Shown: positions 20,067 to 29,433 of the stretch, in pieces | Position numbering within the stretch: position 1 is the stretch's first letter | Layout of the letters: every line of letters starts with the position of its first letter | Source: an uncultured Candidatus Poseidoniales archaeon | GTDB taxonomy: Archaea > Thermoplasmatota > Poseidoniia > Poseidoniales > Poseidoniaceae | Direction of reading: 5' to 3' | DNA: 64,000 bases | Assembly (NCBI GenBank): GCA_905182715.1 | Contig: CAJJCP010000003.1 | Span: forward strand, 3,580-67,579 | Translations under genes and position numbers: made by a program | Notes under the pieces: generated by a model | The model's input: the letters and a program-made list of their open reading frames with translations, nothing else | Database searches by the model: none | Told to the model about the DNA's origin: nothing

Positions 20067-20166
20067 CGAAGTGGGCGACTCGCAAACCCGACTTAAACGC
20101 GCCGTCGCGCATTATCTGTCATAATTGACCACGAGATTGACAAAGTTTGAGGATTCAACACAATTC

Positions 20167-23100
20167 ATGCGACCCGCATTCTTTGTCACGATGCTGTTGT
20201 TGCTACCCTTAGCCCAGGGCCTTGGGCCGTCGTTGTTTCCGGAGGAGGTTTTGGGGGAAGAACGCGTATTGGTTCTCGAAGAAGGGGTATGGACACAGGA
20301 ATTGTGGGCATCGCTTTCCCATGTTGGTTACACTCCATTGCGGATGTTGAGTTCGACCGAGGTATTGGTTTGGGATTCATCTGAAGGGAATGGAATATTG
20401 GGCGTTCATGTGAATGAAGCACCGGATGTTCAATTCAAAGGTGAGTTTGAGCACTTCTCTGGATATGGATCATTCCGATTCGTGTTCGAACCAAATCTTC
20501 CCTCTGAAGCTGTACATCAAGTAGTCACGGTATTCGCTCAATTTGGAATCAAACTTAATTCGGAGGTTGAACGCTATTCCTCAGCGATTCCTCACGTCGA
20601 AGTTGTTGAGTGGAGTGCTGGTTTTTCGGCTCTTACCTCAATGGATGGTTTACTCTGGGTTGAGCCGGTTTTACCCACTTCAGCGCGTAACGAGCAGGTT
20701 GGCTCGCTGCTTCAACATGGCTTGACAACCGGAAACCCAGCCTGGGAGTTAGGACTTAATGGTGAAGGGGTAGTTGTCGCTGTGGCTGATTCTGGACTCG
20801 ATGCTGACCATGCCTGTTTCCGGAATGCAACTGCTGCAGGCGAACTTGGTTCAGTTGGTGAGAATTTATCTGACGGAGTTGGAGTTCCTGGTTTTGATCA
20901 CCGTAAGGTTTTGTTACTCAACCATTCGATTGATTCTGGAGATACTTCTGGTCATTCCGATTATCGGCACGGGACACATGTTGCAGGAACGTTGTCATGC
21001 TACAATGTCTATGATATGCGTTCGAATACAATGCCTCAAAATGGCTCTTCACTTTCCTATGCAACGAAACTTATTTTCCAAGATATTGTTTCTGAAGAGG
21101 GATGGGTTCCGCCAGATGTTGATGCTTTACTCGTTGAGGCGGGGTTGGACGGCGCTACACTCCATTCAAATTCTTGGGGTGATGATACGACTGCATACAC
21201 TGTGCGTACTGGAGATTTTGATGCTTGGGCTGCCGAGATGCCTTGGTCTCTTGCGTTCATTGCACCGGGCAACAATGGAGGACAACTCTTGGAGCCGGCA
21301 AATGGGAGAAATGTCGTCGCTGTTGGCGCATCAATAAAGGCGGAATCTTCGAACCGATGGAGTGCTTCTTCGATCGGCCCTACCGAAAGTGGAACGAACG
21401 GAATCTTCGCCCTTGCCATCGGCTCTTCTGTTCAATCTGCACGAGCAGATGGCTTGAGTGATTCTTACAATGATGGTCTGCGTTCTTCATCGGGCACGAG
21501 TATGGCAACACCTGCAGCGGCAAGCGCCGCAGCAATCATTCAGCAAATGGTTGAGCAAGGTTGGATTTCTGGAAAAGAAAATCGAACACTTCAGTCAGTG
21601 AGTGATTTGCGTCCTGAATGGGTTGAGGGTGAGAAGAATATGACAAACAACCTCAGCCTTGCTGTTGGTTTTTCACCTTCGGGGGCATTGCTTCGAACGT
21701 TACTTTCACTCGCAACTACGCCTCTTCCTTCGGACGTAAGAAATGGGGAAAACGGCGGAGCTGATTTACAAAATCATTACGATGGTTGGGGACAACTTAC
21801 CCTTTCAGAATTAATAGACTTCGCTGAAATCGAAACTGCATTGCATCGAGGAGATGTCTCGCCTACGGAAGATCTTTGGATTCACGATTCCTTCCGCCTC
21901 TTCGATCAAAGCCCACAAGCATGGCTCCAACAAAGGCAAGGAGATTCTGAAGCCTTAGAAAACTTAGTTGCCATGCCCTGGAATGGTACGGGGGCTGCGG
22001 GCCCGTTTTTGAAAAGTGGAGATGTGTTTGTAGAACGGTTTAGTCTTTCGAACGGGTCTTTTGATGCTCGATTAGCGTGGGCAGCAGCGCCCGAGCCCCA
22101 CCTCGTCGATGATTTACAACTCATTGTCCGACTTTCTGACGGGCGAATTGCCGTTGCGAATGAATATCAAAACGATGGAGATTCGAAACTCTACCATTCC
22201 CACTTGGTTGATTTCTCAAACACGACGACATTCCCAATGACGAACGAAACAACCCTCGCCGTTTCACTTTCTGAAGTAGACCTCGATGGAGTGGAATGGG
22301 TCGAAGTTGAAGTCCGTGCCCGCTATGTATCTCCTGGTAATCAAAATAATTCAGTTGGTATTGATGGGAATCGTGTTGGGTTTGCTTTAGCTGTTCAAGG
22401 AGTTCTACGCGATTCGAATTCATGGGAGGATGGAGATGGGGACGGAGTTGCAAACGGTATTGATGATTGCCCGAACCAAAACGCCACCGAATGGGATTTG
22501 GATGCCGATGGATGCATCGATGATTCTGATGGAGATTCTATTCTCGACAACATCGATGATTGCCCAAGTGAAAACTCAACTGCATACGACAGTGATTCAA
22601 ATGGATGCATTGACGATTCAGACAGTGATGGAATCTATGATAATCTGGATGTATGTTTTACTGTTGTCGTTTCAACATTTTGGCCGGTCGATGCATTCGG
22701 TTGTAGGCCAGTCGATTCACTCCCTTCGATTGATTTTGTTTTATCGCCGGAAGATGGAGGTGAATGGTACGATGCTCTTCTTGTCCAATGGAGTGTTGAA
22801 GATGATGAAGGGGATGCGTTTGATACGGGTGCTGAAATCCATGTTCTCAATTCTTCAAGTTCCGGTGGCTCGTACTCAATCTCTTCTTGCATAAAGCAAA
22901 ATGTCGTGAATGGCACTTTTTCTTGCACATGGTATATTCCAAACGATTTGCCTGTGTGGGATATTCGAGGCGAGTACTTACAAATCGAGGTATATGCTCA
23001 AAGTCGAAACCTTTCACCTGAAGGGAAGAATGACATGGTGCTTCTTCGAGACGATGTTACTTTTACGAGCAATTGGAACAATCCTTTGCTTGAAAATTCG

Positions 23101-23316
23101 GAAGAAGGTTCTCAGTCAGAGGAAGTGGTTGCTTCTCAGAACCTCCGCATTGCGGGGGCGTTTGCATGGGGGGCGATCGGTATTCTTGCTGGCTTAGGAT
23201 TGATGTACCAGTTAAATTGGCGCGTTAAGCGCGAATATGAGGGTGAAAAGGTTCCAATGGCTTTTGAAGATGGTGTGGGTTACCGCGTTGCAGAGAGTTT
23301 GCATGAAAACGAATGA
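20167..23316 (+). CDS. exported subtilisin-like serine protease (S8) with thrombospondin type-3-like Ca-binding repeats and C-terminal TM anchor
   Basis: Catalytic triad contexts VAVADSGLD, HGTHVAGT, GTSMATP. Signal peptide MRPAFFVTMLLLLPLAQG (ATG 20167; the track starts at TTG 20125). C-terminal helix AFAWGAIGILAGLGLMY. Confidence 0.9.
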   Translation: MRPAFFVTMLLLLPLAQGLGPSLFPEEVLGEERVLVLEEGVWTQELWASLSHVGYTPLRMLSSTEVLVWDSSEGNGILGVHVNEAPDVQFKGEFEHFSGYGSFRFVFEPNLPSEAVHQVVTVFAQFGIKLNSEVERYSSAIPHVEVVEWSAGFSALTSMDGLLWVEPVLPTSARNEQVGSLLQHGLTTGNPAWELGLNGEGVVVAVADSGLDADHACFRNATAAGELGSVGENLSDGVGVPGFDHRKVLLLNHSIDSGDTSGHSDYRHGTHVAGTLSCYNVYDMRSNTMPQNGSSLSYATKLIFQDIVSEEGWVPPDVDALLVEAGLDGATLHSNSWGDDTTAYTVRTGDFDAWAAEMPWSLAFIAPGNNGGQLLEPANGRNVVAVGASIKAESSNRWSASSIGPTESGTNGIFALAIGSSVQSARADGLSDSYNDGLRSSSGTSMATPAAASAAAIIQQMVEQGWISGKENRTLQSVSDLRPEWVEGEKNMTNNLSLAVGFSPSGALLRTLLSLATTPLPSDVRNGENGGADLQNHYDGWGQLTLSELIDFAEIETALHRGDVSPTEDLWIHDSFRLFDQSPQAWLQQRQGDSEALENLVAMPWNGTGAAGPFLKSGDVFVERFSLSNGSFDARLAWAAAPEPHLVDDLQLIVRLSDGRIAVANEYQNDGDSKLYHSHLVDFSNTTTFPMTNETTLAVSLSEVDLDGVEWVEVEVRARYVSPGNQNNSVGIDGNRVGFALAVQGVLRDSNSWEDGDGDGVANGIDDCPNQNATEWDLDADGCIDDSDGDSILDNIDDCPSENSTAYDSDSNGCIDDSDSDGIYDNLDVCFTVVVSTFWPVDAFGCRPVDSLPSIDFVLSPEDGGEWYDALLVQWSVEDDEGDAFDTGAEIHVLNSSSSGGSYSISSCIKQNVVNGTFSCTWYIPNDLPVWDIRGEYLQIEVYAQSRNLSPEGKNDMVLLRDDVTFTSNWNNPLLENSEEGSQSEEVVASQNLRIAGAFAWGAIGILAGLGLMYQLNWRVKREYEGEKVPMAFEDGVGYRVAESLHENE
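22429..22656 (+). repeat. coding tandem Asp-rich repeats (DDCPxxNxTxxDxDxxGCIDDSD x2, TSP3-like)
   Basis: DGDGDGVANGIDDCPNQNATEWDLDADGCIDDSDGDSILDNIDDCPSENSTAYDSDSNGCIDDSDSDGIYDNLDVC. Confidence 0.7.
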
Positions 23317-23415
23317 CGTCGGGCCAAAAGTCTGCTAATTTTTGTTCAAAGAAGCAAGGAATGTAAAGGTGAACCTTGAAGGGTGGTGGCATCCTCGCCG
23401 ATACATCCGCAATGC

Positions 23416-23420
23416 GGAGG
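23416..23420 (+). promoter_or_regulatory. Shine-Dalgarno-like GGAGG upstream of the actin-like gene
   Basis: ggagggtgaagaaaaATG, with 10 nt between GGAGG and ATG 23431. Confidence 0.4.
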
Positions 23421-23430
23421 GTGAAGAAAA

Positions 23431-24435
23431 ATGAGTGACCGTCTATATGTTGGAATCGATCTAGGTACCTATCAATCTACTATTGCATCAAGTGCTGGCA
23501 TCAGCCACACAATCGAAACTGTTGTCGGGCGTCCTAAGGACCCTGTTGCACGAAACTTCCTCGGACGAGACGTCTTGTTTGGAAGCGATGCTCTCAAGAA
23601 CAAACTCGCATGTAACCTCTACCGGCCTATGGCTGCTGGAGTTGCACAAGACGATGAAGGTAATTTGGCCGCTGCTAAGGCGTTTGTCTCTCACCTTTTG
23701 GAAACTGTAGACCCTGAAGAATTCGATGAAGTATTCGGAGTTATCTGCTCTCCAAGCCACGTTTCATTCACTGACAAGTCCAACCTCGTTGCTACGCTAC
23801 GTGGACAAGTTAACGCCATCATGGTCGTTACAGAACCTTTTGCTACTGCTTTTGGTATCGGTGAAATTGCAAGTTCAATTGTTGTTGATATCGGTGCAGG
23901 AACTACCGATATTGCACGAATCTACGGTACTTTCCCAACAGACGAAGACCAAGTCACTATCCAAGAAGCTGGAGACTGGCTCGACAACGAACTCATGGAA
24001 CTGATCCGAAAGAAGTACACCGGCGCTCAAGTTACAAAAGACATGGTTCGCAAGTGGAAGGAAGAAGTTTCCTACGTCGGAAGCGAAGACCGTCAAGCAA
24101 TGGTTGAATTGTCCGTTGAAGGAAAGAAGCAAGTCGTCGATATTGGCGACCTTGTCAACCAAGCGTGTGAAATGATTATTCCTAAGATCGGAAACGCAAT
24201 CAAGCGAATCGTCGCTGGCGCAGACCCTGAATACCAACCTATACTCCGAAACAACATCATCCTCTCCGGTGGCGGCTCCTTGATTGAAGGCGTTGCTGCA
24301 CGAATGGCTGATGAAATCTCCGACATCGGAGACGTCAATGTTTGGTGTGTCGAAGACCCAATCAACGCAGTTGCTACCGGCGCTCTTCAACTCGCTGGTG
24401 AAATGCCAGATGACATGTTCACTGCAATCAACTGA
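23431..24435 (+). CDS. actin-family ATPase, MamK-like
   Basis: Actin-fold motifs GIDLGT (phosphate 1), VVDIGAGTTDI (phosphate 2), ILSGGGS (adenosine). Also TVVGRPKD, VVTEPF, GTFPTDEDQVTIQEAG, PEYQPILRNNI. From memory, these track MamK rather than MreB (MreB has DIGGGTTEV). Confidence 0.8.
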   Translation: MSDRLYVGIDLGTYQSTIASSAGISHTIETVVGRPKDPVARNFLGRDVLFGSDALKNKLACNLYRPMAAGVAQDDEGNLAAAKAFVSHLLETVDPEEFDEVFGVICSPSHVSFTDKSNLVATLRGQVNAIMVVTEPFATAFGIGEIASSIVVDIGAGTTDIARIYGTFPTDEDQVTIQEAGDWLDNELMELIRKKYTGAQVTKDMVRKWKEEVSYVGSEDRQAMVELSVEGKKQVVDIGDLVNQACEMIIPKIGNAIKRIVAGADPEYQPILRNNIILSGGGSLIEGVAARMADEISDIGDVNVWCVEDPINAVATGALQLAGEMPDDMFTAIN

Positions 24436-24529
24436 TTGTCGGGCTCATTCAAAGGGTAGAAAACCAGCCGTCTAAGGCTTGTTTCAATGGAGAAAGTTCA
24501 AGTGTGGTTGAGCGGCGATAGTCGCTTGT

Positions 24530-25795
24530 ATGACGCTCGACTCTTCCGGAACAAGTGGTATCAATCGAATTGGTGACGCAACAGGCGACGAACGTGCTGC
24601 TCTGGAAGGCATGCTCAAAGGATACCCTGTTGAGCAACTGGTTGAAGAAGTTCTCATCGCTTGGAATGAGCTTGCCGCTCGCAATGAAGAAATGGTTTCT
24701 GTAAAGCAACGGCTACGCGTTCTCGAACTCGATCTTGCTGAACGCGAAGACATGGTCGCACCAGAAGTTGCAAGGCTTGCAGAGTCTGATGCTGCTTTGG
24801 AAAACAGTGAATCAAAAGTTATTCATCTGGAACGGTTGCTCGGCGATCTCCGTGAAGAGTTATCTTCACAACAATCCTCACTTTCACACGAAGAACGTGA
24901 ATCAATGGCTACCGAAGTTGGTCAGTTACGAACTTTGACCACGCAACAAGACGAGGTCATAGGAGAAATGGAAGGTCGAATCGGACAGATGGTCGAAGCT
25001 CTTGAACGGGCTGCTGATGCTGGGCTCACGTCCGTTACCGCTGAGGAGGTTCGAAGTTTGAAAGCACAACTCGATACGGCAATTGCACAAAACGATGCTG
25101 AGCAAGCAGCCAATAAAGCGCTCGAAGAAGAGCGACAAAGACTCCGAGATATCGCCGACCGGTTGCGAGGCCTTCTCGATGCTCGAGATGGTCGCCTCGG
25201 CGAACTCGAAGAACAACTTGAGCGAGTGATGCAAGGGCCTCGGTCCGTTTCAGCAGAACACGACTACTTGGTTGAACAAATCGACGAACTCAAGCGCCGA
25301 TTACTTGAACGAAACCGAGAATATGATTCGCTCCGTCGTCGAGAACGACGACTTCACAACGATGTGTTTGAACGCGACGAGCGTATCCAACAAATCACCC
25401 TTACACTTACTGACATGGAAGCGGCTTTGCAAGACAGAACCGCTGAACTTCGTGAGCTCGAAGGGCAGCGTGAAACTATGGTGCACGAACTGGATTCTGT
25501 TCGCCGTGGTGAGCGTACTCGTGAAGTGGTTGGAAGAGTCTTTGCCGATTCACTGTCACTGGTTCGCACGCATGATGCTCGTGAAGCAAAACGTGATGCA
25601 TACAGTAATGCCCCTGATGTGAAGCGAACATTGTCAACACCTGAAACTGGCGACATGACAACATTGGCAGAAGGCGGCCGTGTTCATCTTGAAGTCAATG
25701 AAAGTGAAATTGAGCAGGGTATCGATGTTGATGGTGCTCGGCCTCCATCACCGGGTGGCTCTGGCGACCCTGTTGTCTTTGACGATGAAGATTGA
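24530..25795 (+). CDS. long coiled-coil protein with acidic C-terminal tail, hypothetical
   Basis: 421 aa, E/R/L/Q-rich heptad-like sequence over ~300 aa (LRVLELDLAERED...LRELEGQRETMVHELD), ending in VVFDDED. Same strand as the actin-like gene and 94 nt downstream of it. Confidence 0.65.
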   Translation: MTLDSSGTSGINRIGDATGDERAALEGMLKGYPVEQLVEEVLIAWNELAARNEEMVSVKQRLRVLELDLAEREDMVAPEVARLAESDAALENSESKVIHLERLLGDLREELSSQQSSLSHEERESMATEVGQLRTLTTQQDEVIGEMEGRIGQMVEALERAADAGLTSVTAEEVRSLKAQLDTAIAQNDAEQAANKALEEERQRLRDIADRLRGLLDARDGRLGELEEQLERVMQGPRSVSAEHDYLVEQIDELKRRLLERNREYDSLRRRERRLHNDVFERDERIQQITLTLTDMEAALQDRTAELRELEGQRETMVHELDSVRRGERTREVVGRVFADSLSLVRTHDAREAKRDAYSNAPDVKRTLSTPETGDMTTLAEGGRVHLEVNESEIEQGIDVDGARPPSPGGSGDPVVFDDED

Positions 25796-26608
25796 TCAGG
25801 CATTCAATGCTGCGGTAATGCCGCTGATTCTTTGACGGAGTTCTTCTAAATCAGCCGCGTCTTCAGTGAGCGTTCCCGTTACAATCCAATCTGCGCCTGC
25901 TTGCGCAGCAAGAGCTGCTTGCTCTGGAGTTCGTATCCCGCCGCCGACAACAATCGTGAGATTCTCAACGGTACGAGCGCTTTCCACCAGCTGGGGATGT
26001 ACTTGGGTATCGGCTCCACTCCCTGCTTCAAGATAGAGTATTTTGAAGCCGAACATGCGCGCCGTTAGGGCATAAGCATGAACTAATTCAGATTCATCTG
26101 GTTGGATAAGTTCAGCTTCTCCGACTTCTCCAACCCGGCCTCCCGGCGCACATACAAGATACCCAGTAGGTAATGCCTCAACACCGAATTTTTCGAGATA
26201 CGGTGCTCCACGAATTTGCTCACCGATCAAAAATCTGCGAGTGTTTGAGTTCATCAGCATCATGAAGGTGATTGCATCTGCTGCAGGAGAGAGTGCGTGA
26301 GCGCCCCCTGGAAACAAGACTACAGGGATTTGCCATTGGGCTTCGTCAGATTCAGGGTCTTGACTTGCCGCAAAAGCTCGTAATTCAAAGGCTTCCTGGA
26401 TGGCTTGGCAGGTAGCATGGACTACTGCATCTGGAGTGTCCGTAGAGCCGCCTACAAAAATCATGCTGCTTCCGCATTCAACGGCAACCATTGCACGGTT
26501 TGCAGCGGTGTTTGAGTCTTGTTTTGCCGGGTCGATGAGGGTGATATGCCGTGTGTTTTGGCTTTTGGAAGTCACATATTCCAGTGTTGTAGCGTCGGCC
26601 CTTCTCAT
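25796..26608 (-). CDS. geranylgeranylglyceryl phosphate synthase (GGGPS/PcrB family)
   Basis: HITLIDPAKQ, IFVGGST, ILYLEAGSG, VGGGIRTPEQA. The track ORF extends to 26656; the Met at 26608 gives the usual length. Confidence 0.8.
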   Translation of the reverse strand: MRRADATTLEYVTSKSQNTRHITLIDPAKQDSNTAANRAMVAVECGSSMIFVGGSTDTPDAVVHATCQAIQEAFELRAFAASQDPESDEAQWQIPVVLFPGGAHALSPAADAITFMMLMNSNTRRFLIGEQIRGAPYLEKFGVEALPTGYLVCAPGGRVGEVGEAELIQPDESELVHAYALTARMFGFKILYLEAGSGADTQVHPQLVESARTVENLTIVVGGGIRTPEQAALAAQAGADWIVTGTLTEDAADLEELRQRISGITAALNA

Positions 26609-28545: not shown

Positions 28546-28575
28546 GGCCCGGGCCAAAAATAGTTTTTGAGTGAT

Positions 28576-29433
28576 ATGATAAATCAACGATTTTCAAAAA
28601 CCACGAGCCTGCTGTTAGTTGCCACATTCGCCCTTGCTTTCGCAGGAACGGTCAGCGCTGCTGACCCACTTCCAGTTGGAAAAAATGGACTGCCTGAATT
28701 CCTCGAAGGTGATACGCTAGCCACAATGACTTTCTTCTTGTTCTTTATTGGATACATCTCAATGGGTGCTGCATTCGTGTTCTTCATGAGTGAGCGAGGA
28801 AACGTTGCACCTCAGTACCGTACAACAATGACAATCTCAGCACTGATTGTCGGTATTGCCGCATTCCATTACTACTACATGCGTGGAGTCTACGCCGATT
28901 ACGGGGAAGTTTCAATTGAATACCGTTACATGGACTGGATTATTACAGTTCCATTGATGGCTCTCAAATTCCCTTCCCTCATCGGCAAGGGTGCAATCAC
29001 TGACACAAAGGTCGCTGGTCTTGGATTCACTGGAATCTGTTTCACTGGTGCTCTCATCATGATTGGATTCGGATATGCTGGCGAAGCTGGTTTAATGAAC
29101 GGCATGGCTGCATTGGTACTTGGTGGAGCAGGTTGGGCTATGATTATCGTAGCAACTGGAACCCCATGGACCTCTGGCCTTGGTGTCGACAACAGTAAAA
29201 TCGCACCTGAACTCATGTGGAGCGCAAACGCACTTCGCTGGTTCATCGTCGTCGGATGGATCATCTACCCTCTCGGCTACCTCTTTAGCCCTCAAGTTGA
29301 TTTGCTCGATGGTAACCAAGAAGCTATGGCTGTTGCTTACAATATTGCAGACATCATCAACAAGATCGGTTTCGGTGTTGTTGCATGGATGGGTGCTAAG
29401 AAAGCAACCGAAGCTCTTGCTGCTTCAGAGTGA
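28576..29433 (+). CDS. proteorhodopsin-family microbial rhodopsin (DTK motif, Met at tuning site 105)
   Basis: Helix C RYMDWIITVPLMALKF aligns with green PR RYIDWLLTVPLLICEF. His75 context AFHYYYMRG. Helix G retinal lysine in YNIADIINKIGFG. Signal peptide MINQRFSKTTSLLLVATFALAFAGTVSA. Confidence 0.9.
   Translation: MINQRFSKTTSLLLVATFALAFAGTVSAADPLPVGKNGLPEFLEGDTLATMTFFLFFIGYISMGAAFVFFMSERGNVAPQYRTTMTISALIVGIAAFHYYYMRGVYADYGEVSIEYRYMDWIITVPLMALKFPSLIGKGAITDTKVAGLGFTGICFTGALIMIGFGYAGEAGLMNGMAALVLGGAGWAMIIVATGTPWTSGLGVDNSKIAPELMWSANALRWFIVVGWIIYPLGYLFSPQVDLLDGNQEAMAVAYNIADIINKIGFGVVAWMGAKKATEALAASE

Follow-up and report, generated by a model that had tools for sequence, protein, structure and literature searches.

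The window analysed here, a stretch of 64,000 nucleotides from an uncultured Candidatus Poseidoniales archaeon (assembly GCA_905182715.1, contig CAJJCP010000003.1), carries the gene of a 334-amino-acid actin homologue, followed on the same strand by that of a 421-amino-acid coiled-coil protein, referred to below as the partner. The nearest relatives of the actin are by far the MamK proteins, followed at a distance by BeeR, then by MreB and finally by salactin and ParM, and the name given to it in public records, 'rod shape-determining protein MreB', is too loose for this Poseidoniales protein. The homology, fold and catalytic residues of the actin, the very strong purifying selection on it, the conserved order of the two genes and the recurrence of an actin-plus-coiled-coil adjacency in other lineages are established by the results below. 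Judging from its family, its fold, its catalytic residues and its polymer-like conservation, the actin is very probably a filament former, and its partnership with the coiled-coil protein is plausible.

The two open reading frames (ORFs), the 94-nucleotide gap that separates them and the GGAGG site ahead of the actin gene (Table 1) were found where a previous, sequence-only reading of this DNA had put them. That reading had also compared the actin with MamK, block by block; all the motifs that it quoted are present, and each of them aligns with the MamK block named for it in the HMMER alignment to 5jyg. By amino acid position, the protein contains GIDLGT (8-13), TVVGRPKD (30-37), VVTEPF (132-137), VVDIGAGTTDI (151-161), GTFPTDEDQVTIQEAG (166-181), PEYQPILRNNIILSGGGS (266-283) and VWCVEDP (304-310). 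GIDLGT is the phosphate-1 motif and GGGS (280-283) the adenosine motif, and as a whole the protein possesses the five nucleotide-binding motifs of actin-fold (ASKHA) ATPases, namely phosphate-1, connect-1, phosphate-2, adenosine and connect-2, together with the actin fold. The ATPase residues are in place (D10, E135, D153, GAGTT and GGGS): the catalytic E135, within VVTEPF, corresponds to MamK E143, and D153, within DIGAGTTD (153-160), to MamK D161. The start of the protein lies only three residues ahead of the first beta-strand.

Concerning the family models, the highest score was obtained with the NCBIfam MamK model (NF040964), with a full-length match (residues 5-332) of 339.5 bits against a cutoff of 400 (E-value of 1.8e-101). 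The BeeR model (NF053558) gave 212.3 bits (cutoff 530), the MreB models PRK13927, TIGR00904 and PRK13929 gave 87.3, 76.8 and 72 bits (cutoffs 293, 365.75 and 515), and the ParM model 23.2 bits (cutoff 417). For salactin, 31.2 bits were obtained with NF053533 (cutoff 400) and 24.8 bits with the Pfam model PF25229 (cutoff 27.1), while the matches to volactin were faint and came from precomputed results only. The broad Pfam model MreB_Mbl was passed (92.7 vs. 27 bits). Membership of the MreB family was rejected, since the specific NCBIfam models all fell below their cutoffs, and so was that of the salactin family, for which both scores are below cutoff. The same ranking was found in a sequence search against the PDB, with E-values of 1.8e-63 for MamK (5jyg), 1.2e-38 for BeeR and 4.6e-14 for MreB, and a BLASTP alignment of the window actin with MamK, 325 residues long and containing one gap, shows 35% identity. 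Modelled with AlphaFold2 (pLDDT 68.5, pTM 0.71; subdomain IB poorly predicted), the actin retrieved in Foldseek the MamK structure 5ljv first (TM-score 0.80), followed by BeeR (0.78), MreB (about 0.67) and then eukaryotic actins, with a probability of 1.00 for MamK, BeeR, MreB and actin. MamK (5jyg, 5ljv, 5ljw; NF040964) is thus the best match by hidden Markov model, by sequence and by predicted fold. The likeness runs end to end without large indels and includes the nucleotide-binding and catalytic residues, a similar length and the lack of an N-terminal extension. Taken together, the NCBIfam, PDB and Foldseek results bear out the earlier view that the protein is closest to MamK, and not to MreB, ParM or crenactin; nor is it an ordinary salactin or Hsp70.

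Full-length matches from a homologue search over 1.84 billion cluster representatives were used to build a neighbour-joining tree, with MamK, BeeR and Thermotoga MreB references taken from PDB alignments. MreB splits from the entire MamK-like group with a bootstrap value of 100, so that the actin stands outside MreB, as anticipated by the sequence-only reading. Inside the MamK-like group, the deeper branching order is not resolved, with bootstrap values under 30, whereas several clades are supported: the Poseidoniales proteins (100), the BeeR-like sequences, which form a clade of their own (86), a set of proteins with N-terminal extensions (98), and MamK joined by a MamK-like protein of Magnetospirillum (AMB-1) (70-76). 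The Poseidoniales clade lies outside the MamK clade. The qualification 'MamK-type' is therefore right as to the nearest relative and wrong if it is taken to mean the magnetosome MamK clade or the NCBIfam family, whose cutoff is not reached. A magnetosome MamK orthologue was rejected for these two reasons and because no mamAB-type cluster occurs among the neighbouring genes examined; the Poseidoniales protein further differs from MamK by its archaeal host and by a proline at the position of MamK A278. BeeR, the three-stranded tubular actin of Opitutus terrae (8r2n; PMC11929497), is also MamK-related, comes from a non-magnetotactic host and is the second-best match by model, sequence and fold. 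Membership of this family was rejected too, on its score and on the absence from the window actin of the disordered N-terminal extension of 30-50 residues that is the hallmark of BeeR (PMC11929497).

According to database names, MamK-like actins are found in Gemmatimonadota, Nitrospira, Verrucomicrobiota, Acidobacteriota, Planctomycetota, Nitrosomonadaceae, a deltaproteobacterium and ANME-2/Methanosarcinales archaea. Their presence in many non-magnetotactic taxa fits the BeeR paper, in which a MamK-related family was already described in non-magnetotactic bacteria (PMC11929497). The nearest relatives beyond Poseidoniales are the N-terminally extended proteins, of 523-1232 amino acids (P0243-P0256; loci L081:4864-8562 and L146:10001-13036), with which the Poseidoniales actins group with a bootstrap value of 72. 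In these proteins, a conserved helical N-domain of about 100 residues (KK[DE]RFREWTKSLG) is followed by a long acidic and proline-rich linker and by a basic motif; the MamK-like actin domain is C-terminal. At L146, the sole locus of this kind with informative neighbours, these look bacterial (Wzy, GH2 and sulfatase). As a side observation, the extended-protein gene of L081 is followed by a second actin gene, three Roadblock/LC7 genes and an Arf-like GTPase gene.

Poseidoniales possess a second actin paralogue at another locus, outside the window, which the sequence-only reading had overlooked. Paralogue B, of 340-341 amino acids and 46% identical to the window actin (paralogue A), came to light in a search with one of two fragments, both frameshifted, that share about 47-48% identity with the window protein. 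It was located at loci L093-L096 (L093:7001-8026 and L095:7001-8023 for the gene), with source records from Poseidoniaceae (P0482) and Thalassarchaeaceae (P0511). Paralogues A and B are sisters in the neighbour-joining tree (bootstrap 96), and they are best explained as anciently duplicated core genes of Poseidoniales. The flanking genes of paralogue B code for a 338-amino-acid protein whose ends are Zn ribbons and for a membrane protein that carries a Zn ribbon in its tail. At the site where the A278D change makes MamK non-polymerising (PDB 5ljw), paralogue B has an aspartate and paralogue A a proline (Pro270).

The actin gene is followed by the partner gene in 80 of the best 80 loci retrieved from GTDB species contigs, all of them from Poseidoniaceae, with actins 86-100% identical to that of the window. 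In the most divergent of these loci, identity is 86% for the actin, 72% for the partner, 67% for the GGGP synthase encoded downstream, 77% for an ABC exporter and 43% for an S8 subtilase encoded upstream. A more distant group of four loci (the L082 group) keeps the order wherever the contig is long enough (actin 83%, partner 71%, GGGP synthase 60%), bringing the range of actin identity among close homologues to 83-100%. When metagenomes were scanned with a fragment of a divergent partner as the seed, 46 loci were obtained, among which the actin gene lies upstream of the partner gene in each one reaching far enough, including lineages with a partner of only 47-55% identity. In 45 of them, identity ranges from about 63 to 75% for the actin, 46 to 57% for the partner and 51 to 59% for the GGGP synthase; the remaining one, the intermediate L145, displays 78, 63 and 59%, respectively. 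No locus with actin and partner decoupled was found among the GTDB and metagenome loci scanned, and the two-gene order across Poseidoniales, the conservation of which the sequence-only reading had left to be checked, thus holds for all three sets. In every lineage compared, the actin is the most conserved protein of its neighbourhood; in the divergent lineages, for instance, it reaches 72-75% identity against 51-55% for the GGGP synthase, as would be expected if it formed a polymer, whose subunits make contacts over many surfaces. The partner, for its part, is better conserved than the GGGP synthase in the intermediate lineages. The GC content was uninformative for assigning the divergent lineages to MGIIa or MGIIb. 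Two records bear bacterial labels, which are probably binning or labelling errors: a full S8-actin-partner-GGGP synthase block is filed under the bacterial metagenome-assembled genome 'Candidatus Microthrix sp. UBA7828' (L047; DLTU01000102.1), and P0562, a close homologue, is labelled '[bacterium]'.

The partner had been described as a coiled coil with an acidic tail, and both features were recovered. Its composition is rich in E (14.5%), L (11.6%) and R (11.4%), and a hydrophobic periodicity of about 3.5 residues (3.4-3.7) prevails in most 42-residue windows between residues 57 and 350 or so. AlphaFold2 predicted helices at residues 19-29, 34-117, 120-163, 171-235 and 240-342; beyond the last of them come a small C-terminal region and a disordered tail. 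A PGG motif and an acidic end were present in the tail of all lineages aligned, the rest being variable. The net charge of the partner is -39, in a local proteome that is acidic overall (-23 for the actin, -106 for the S8 subtilase). Several blocks of the protein are unusually constant (Table 1). Between the window and the most divergent lineage, 44 of the 59 residues of the N-terminal block are identical, and in the block at the end of the last long helix ERTREVVG, F338, DSL, R346 and H348 are invariant in nine of nine aligned lineages; a further conserved patch, AGLTSVTA.EVR, covers residues 164-177. The block at 236-286 stands out, with 46 of 51 residues (90%) identical to a lineage whose partner, over its full length, shows about 50% identity and whose GGGP synthase shows about 51%. 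Such a block is unusual in a coiled coil of about 50% identity and suggests a conserved binding partner or surface, which makes it a candidate binding interface.

Searches with Pfam, NCBIfam, PADLOC, the PDB and Foldseek did not relate the partner to any adaptor family already described. No Pfam family reached its cutoff (PUMA_CC being the sole match, with 16.7 bits), the PDB profile search gave no match, and Foldseek returned nothing with an E-value below 2. The NCBIfam SMC/Rad50 matches (18-29 bits against cutoffs above 500) and the PADLOC JetC match (at most 23 bits) were discarded as coiled-coil noise. Three other candidates were examined with hhalign and rejected: the helical domain at the N-terminus of the extended MamK-like proteins (probability 0.7%), the Arch_fla_DE N-domain of a giant ANME-2 coiled coil (0.3%, despite the resemblance between ALEGMLKGY and ELEGLLDRY) and a 178-amino-acid protein of Gemmatimonadota (8%, over only eight columns).

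These last two proteins are themselves encoded next to MamK-like actins. In an ANME-2 (Methanosarcinales) contig, the actin gene (L086:6001-7077) is followed 26 nucleotides further on by that of a repetitive coiled coil of 1940 amino acids (L086:7103-12925), whose N-terminus matches the archaellum ArlD/E domain Arch_fla_DE (PF04659) above cutoff, with 38.8 bits. In a marine Gemmatimonadota contig, the actin gene (L087:6001-7089) is followed after 71 nucleotides by that of the 178-amino-acid coiled coil (L087:7161-7697), which has a hydrophobic N-terminus. When 163 long ORFs from the window and ten other loci were compared with a crude metric of periodicity and charge, three were coiled-coil-like, and all three lie directly 3' of a MamK-like actin gene. 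With this base rate and three matches among about nine lineages, the rough chance estimate is well under 1%, for a small and non-random sample. Of note, a large S8 peptidase gene lies upstream of the Gemmatimonadota actin gene, in divergent orientation. A transferred block of S8 and actin genes was rejected, as the similarity is that of generic catalytic domains (25% identity, E-value of 0.004), and this adjacency is coincidental; the suggestion that the pair positions neighbouring exoenzymes received no support.

Upstream of the partner gene, the core of the motif at -36 to -22 (Table 1) is kept in 13 aligned loci, down to the lineage with a 71%-identical partner, and the motif has a single exact match in the 64-kb window. 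It is a candidate promoter element, which would give the partner a short-leader or leaderless transcript. The partner ORF cannot start further upstream, because of an in-frame TGA at 24509-24511. Ahead of the actin gene, at about 23375-23389, CTTGAAGGGTGGTGG resembles the motif more loosely. AAGTTCAAGWGTGGT does not appear to be a general promoter motif of the window, with one exact match and, with up to three mismatches, 11 occurrences vs. 5.7 expected.

Among known systems, the closest working analogy is Desulfovibrio magneticus RS-1, which likewise has two MamK-type paralogues (MamK and Mad28) and coiled-coil proteins (Mad20/23/25/26). MamK and Mad28 polymerise each on its own and with one another, and two-hybrid assays show an interaction of the coiled-coil Mad25 with both (PMC12748827). 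The genes of the RS-1 proteins lie in magnetosome clusters, and their products organise magnetosomes, which is not the case of the Poseidoniales genes, for which the interaction is putative. Crenactin and arcadin-2 of Pyrobaculum (PMC5173319), ParM/ParR and AlfA/AlfB share with the present pair the association of an actin with adjoining, lineage-specific regulator or adaptor genes; the window actin is far from crenactin and ParM, and has neither a DNA-binding adaptor nor centromere repeats. Compared with filament-plus-adaptor pairs of the MamK/MamJ or crenactin/arcadin-2 type, the coiled-coil gene is indeed adjoining, co-oriented and conserved, although the partner is unrelated to MamJ, judging by the absence of family matches. 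Salactin and volactin (PMC10746226, PMC10869688) are, like the window protein, euryarchaeal actin homologues, which form dynamic filaments with roles other than that of MreB, and MamK has been reported as the family closest to salactin (PMC10746226). No adjoining coiled-coil gene is described for them, whereas the window actin has one. As for MreB itself, the likeness is limited to the broad Pfam model and the public label, the specific models falling short by more than 200 bits.

The reading that we put forward, and consider attractive though somewhat short of probable as a whole, is that a filament-forming actin of the MamK/BeeR branch works together with a coiled-coil partner that binds its filaments. 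The 334-amino-acid protein would hydrolyse ATP and polymerise, and its filaments would serve as a housekeeping intracellular system for cell shape, division-site or cargo positioning, unrelated to magnetosomes. The 421-amino-acid protein would be a coiled-coil rod, presumably a dimer, binding along the filaments or at their ends through the invariant patches at 21-79, 236-286 and 327-348. It could stabilise, bundle or tether them, in the manner of MamJ, McaA/B and the Mad proteins on MamK, or of arcadin-2 on crenactin. The housekeeping role would fit a chromosomal core gene in a housekeeping context, without viral copies in the contigs scanned and without centromere repeats nearby; the support for binding is indirect and comes from the invariant partner blocks and the coiled-coil neighbours in ANME-2 and Gemmatimonadota. 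A broader proposal, which is speculative and in our view rather unlikely, adds to this a cytoskeleton of two actins, A and B, in separate or mixed filaments comparable to those of MamK and Mad28, with the 421-amino-acid protein as a ruler or tether acting via block 236-286. In this broader proposal, 'MamK-like actin then coiled coil' would be a recurrent module, assembled independently in Marine Group II, ANME-2 and marine Gemmatimonadota, and magnetosome MamK a specialised offshoot of a larger housekeeping family.

A number of observations weigh against a filament-binding partner. Filament formation is assumed here from family membership, and the structure predicted for the actin is of no more than moderate quality (pLDDT 68.5). 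The S8 protease and the GGGP synthase keep their positions as faithfully as the pair does, so that the whole S8-actin-partner-GGGP synthase block is syntenic and the adjacency is not specific to the two genes. In one divergent lineage, actin and partner are separated by unrelated genes that span up to about 2.8 kb, namely two membrane-protein genes and a gene for a cupredoxin with a signal peptide and a C-terminal anchor (L111:4390-6942; also L108, L112 and L105). In the same lineage, a photolyase-like gene and that of a small membrane protein lie between partner and GGGP synthase (L111:8433-10472). The gene order described in the sequence-only reading is conserved without being specific to the pair. 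The conserved promoter-like motif of the partner also means that the two genes need not be co-transcribed. Finally, the ANME-2 and Gemmatimonadota coiled coils have no detectable homology to the partner, and there is no coiled-coil neighbour at the MamK-like loci of Acidobacteriota, Planctomycetota and Nitrosomonadaceae, at the unassigned locus L091, at the loci of the extended (fusion) group L081 and L146, or next to paralogue B.

The main rival draws on these very points: the actin would be a real filament former with a coiled-coil gene that is merely syntenic. The rod would then act alone, as an SMC-like or intermediate-filament-like protein comparable to haloarchaeal Sph or bacterial coiled-coil-rich proteins, or with another partner, and the actin alone, with paralogue B or with proteins encoded elsewhere. 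We regard it as a serious, if doubtful, contender. It would account for a block that takes in the unrelated S8 and GGGP synthase genes, for the insertions on both sides of the partner gene, for the upstream motif that this gene has of its own, for the lack of a coiled-coil neighbour in most other sampled MamK-like lineages and for the Zn-ribbon proteins that flank paralogue B instead; moreover, coiled-coil SMC-like proteins have an effect on the shape of archaeal cells that is independent of any actin adjacency (PMC10869688). It has more difficulty with the independent recurrence of the adjacency in ANME-2 and Gemmatimonadota, at 26 and 71 nucleotides, respectively, with the lack of any other coiled-coil ORF in about 160 ORFs examined and with the absence of a decoupled locus among the loci scanned. 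The invariant patches of the partner, too, imply a highly conserved ligand, and the adjoining actin is the most conserved protein nearby.

The remaining explanations are less probable. A DNA-segregation machine of the ParM/AlfA/salactin type, in which the actin moves chromosomes and the coiled coil is the DNA adaptor, is improbable. The actin-plus-adaptor layout in two genes is classic for ParMRC and AlfAB, the reported kinship of salactin with MamK goes along with an effect of salactin on chromosome partitioning in Halobacterium (PMC10746226), and the partner has weak SMC/Rad50/JetC-type matches. These matches are, however, far under their cutoffs and limited to coiled-coil segments, and the ParM and salactin models gave 23 and 31 bits for the actin. 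A ParM-type system was rejected on this score and because no centromere-like repeats or repeat arrays occur in 23250-25900, no relatives were found in a scan of viral contigs, and the partner, strongly acidic, has no recognisable DNA-binding domain. A rod-shape determinant guiding envelope synthesis, as the database label implies, is very improbable: the broad Pfam match and the record names speak for it, and against it stand the specific MreB models (87 vs. 293, 77 vs. 366 and 72 vs. 515 bits), the split at bootstrap 100 and the absence of MreC, MreD and RodZ genes among the neighbours examined, i.e. those in roughly 12.6-37.4 kb of the window. Nor are archaea of this group known to have the peptidoglycan machinery that is steered by MreB. 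Least credible of all is a non-polymerising ASKHA enzyme or chaperone, akin to sugar kinases or Hsp70, for which there are weak Hsp70, EutJ and butyrate-kinase matches (E-values of 1e-3 to 1e-4). Those matches reach 15-20 bits, against 340 for MamK, the fold search is dominated by filament-forming actins, and sequences conserved to such an extreme degree are typically those of polymers.

Actins related to MamK were already known from organisms other than magnetotactic bacteria (BeeR), as were archaeal actins akin to MamK or MreB (salactin, volactin). What is new is the Poseidoniales clade, its duplication into two paralogues and its lineage-specific coiled-coil neighbour. In agreement with the sequence-only reading, whose author knew of no function for such a pair, a full-text literature search for actin, MreB or MamK of Poseidoniales/Marine Group II found no description. 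Few archaea of the surface ocean are as abundant as those of Marine Group II. As none of them has ever been grown in culture, next to nothing is known of their cell biology, and two strongly conserved actins, both mislabelled MreB, are concrete candidates for its study. The results also lend further weight to the view of MamK as a single specialised branch within a broad family extending across non-magnetotactic bacteria and archaea, with largely unexplored functions. The finding would gain weight if the partnership, or the wider pattern of a MamK-like actin plus a coiled coil, proved true.

Table 1. Features of the actin and partner genes, with their positions in the 64-kb window.
Feature	Position	Strand	Basis or remark
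GGAGG ribosome-binding site, 10 nucleotides 5' of the actin ATG	23416..23420	+	Sequence reading
MamK-like actin-fold ATPase, 334 amino acids, Poseidoniales paralogue A	23431..24435	+	ORF, ATG start
Spacer between actin and partner genes, 94 nucleotides	24436..24529	+	91-102 nucleotides in 69 Poseidoniaceae loci measured
Conserved motif AAGTTCAAGTGTGGT, -36 to -22 from the partner ATG	24494..24508	+	Alignment
Coiled-coil protein, putative partner, 421 amino acids	24530..25795	+	ORF, ATG start
Partner N-terminal conserved block, residues 21-79 (ERAALEGMLKGY..QLVEEVL.AW.EL ... KQRLRVLELDLAERED..APE)	24590..24766	+	Alignment
Partner invariant block, residues 236-286 (GPRSVSAEHDYLVEQI.ELKRRLLERNREY.SLRRRERRLHNDVFERDERI)	25235..25387	+	Alignment
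Partner conserved block, residues 327-348 (GERTREVVGRVFADSLSLVRTH), end of the last long helix	25508..25573	+	Alignment
Partner tail, disordered, Pro/Gly-rich then acidic, residues 396-421 (..RPPSPGGSGDPVVFDDED)	25715..25792	+	pLDDT <50

Concerning the gene neighbourhood, the genes examined (roughly 12.6-37.4 kb of the window) are of housekeeping type, and none of magnetosome type was seen among them, as the sequence-only reading had noted. The combination of GGGP synthase and rhodopsin, together with 100% protein identity to contigs of Poseidoniaceae metagenome-assembled genomes, marks the DNA as that of a Marine Group II archaeon. Upstream, at 12.6-16.3 kb, are found genes for an S15 peptidase, an NAD-dependent epimerase and an OMP decarboxylase and, nearer to the actin gene, those for a response regulator, an SRP54-type GTPase (SRP54 or FtsY), a prefoldin, a short ORF resembling ribosomal protein L18Ae (the Pfam match being carried by its counterpart in L082) and the S8 subtilase. 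Downstream are those for a convergent GGGP synthase (PcrB), the ABC exporter, a rhodopsin, an acyltransferase, PurQ/PurL and UvrA. No base separates the partner gene from the GGGP synthase ORF, taken from the earliest start that it could have, the two lying tail-to-tail (25795/25796). Terminator-like sites were found 3' of the S8 gene and just beyond the partner stop, the latter a plus-strand hairpin at 25812-25824, within the 3' end of the GGGP synthase gene; none was found in the 94-nucleotide spacer between actin and partner.

Two neighbours vary markedly between genomes. The S8 subtilase (20125-23316, 1063 amino acids), which has a long Asp-rich repeat region of the DxDxDGxxD type and a hydrophobic C-terminal anchor, evolves much faster than any other gene of the block, with 43-86% identity where the actin has 86-100%. 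The slot 3' of the ABC exporter (28567-29433) is occupied by two very different rhodopsins among Poseidoniaceae genomes, either 73-95% or 30-35% identical to that of the window (L011, L024, L026, L036, L042, L053, L057, L067 and L077), and in L042 the rhodopsin gene is on the opposite strand.

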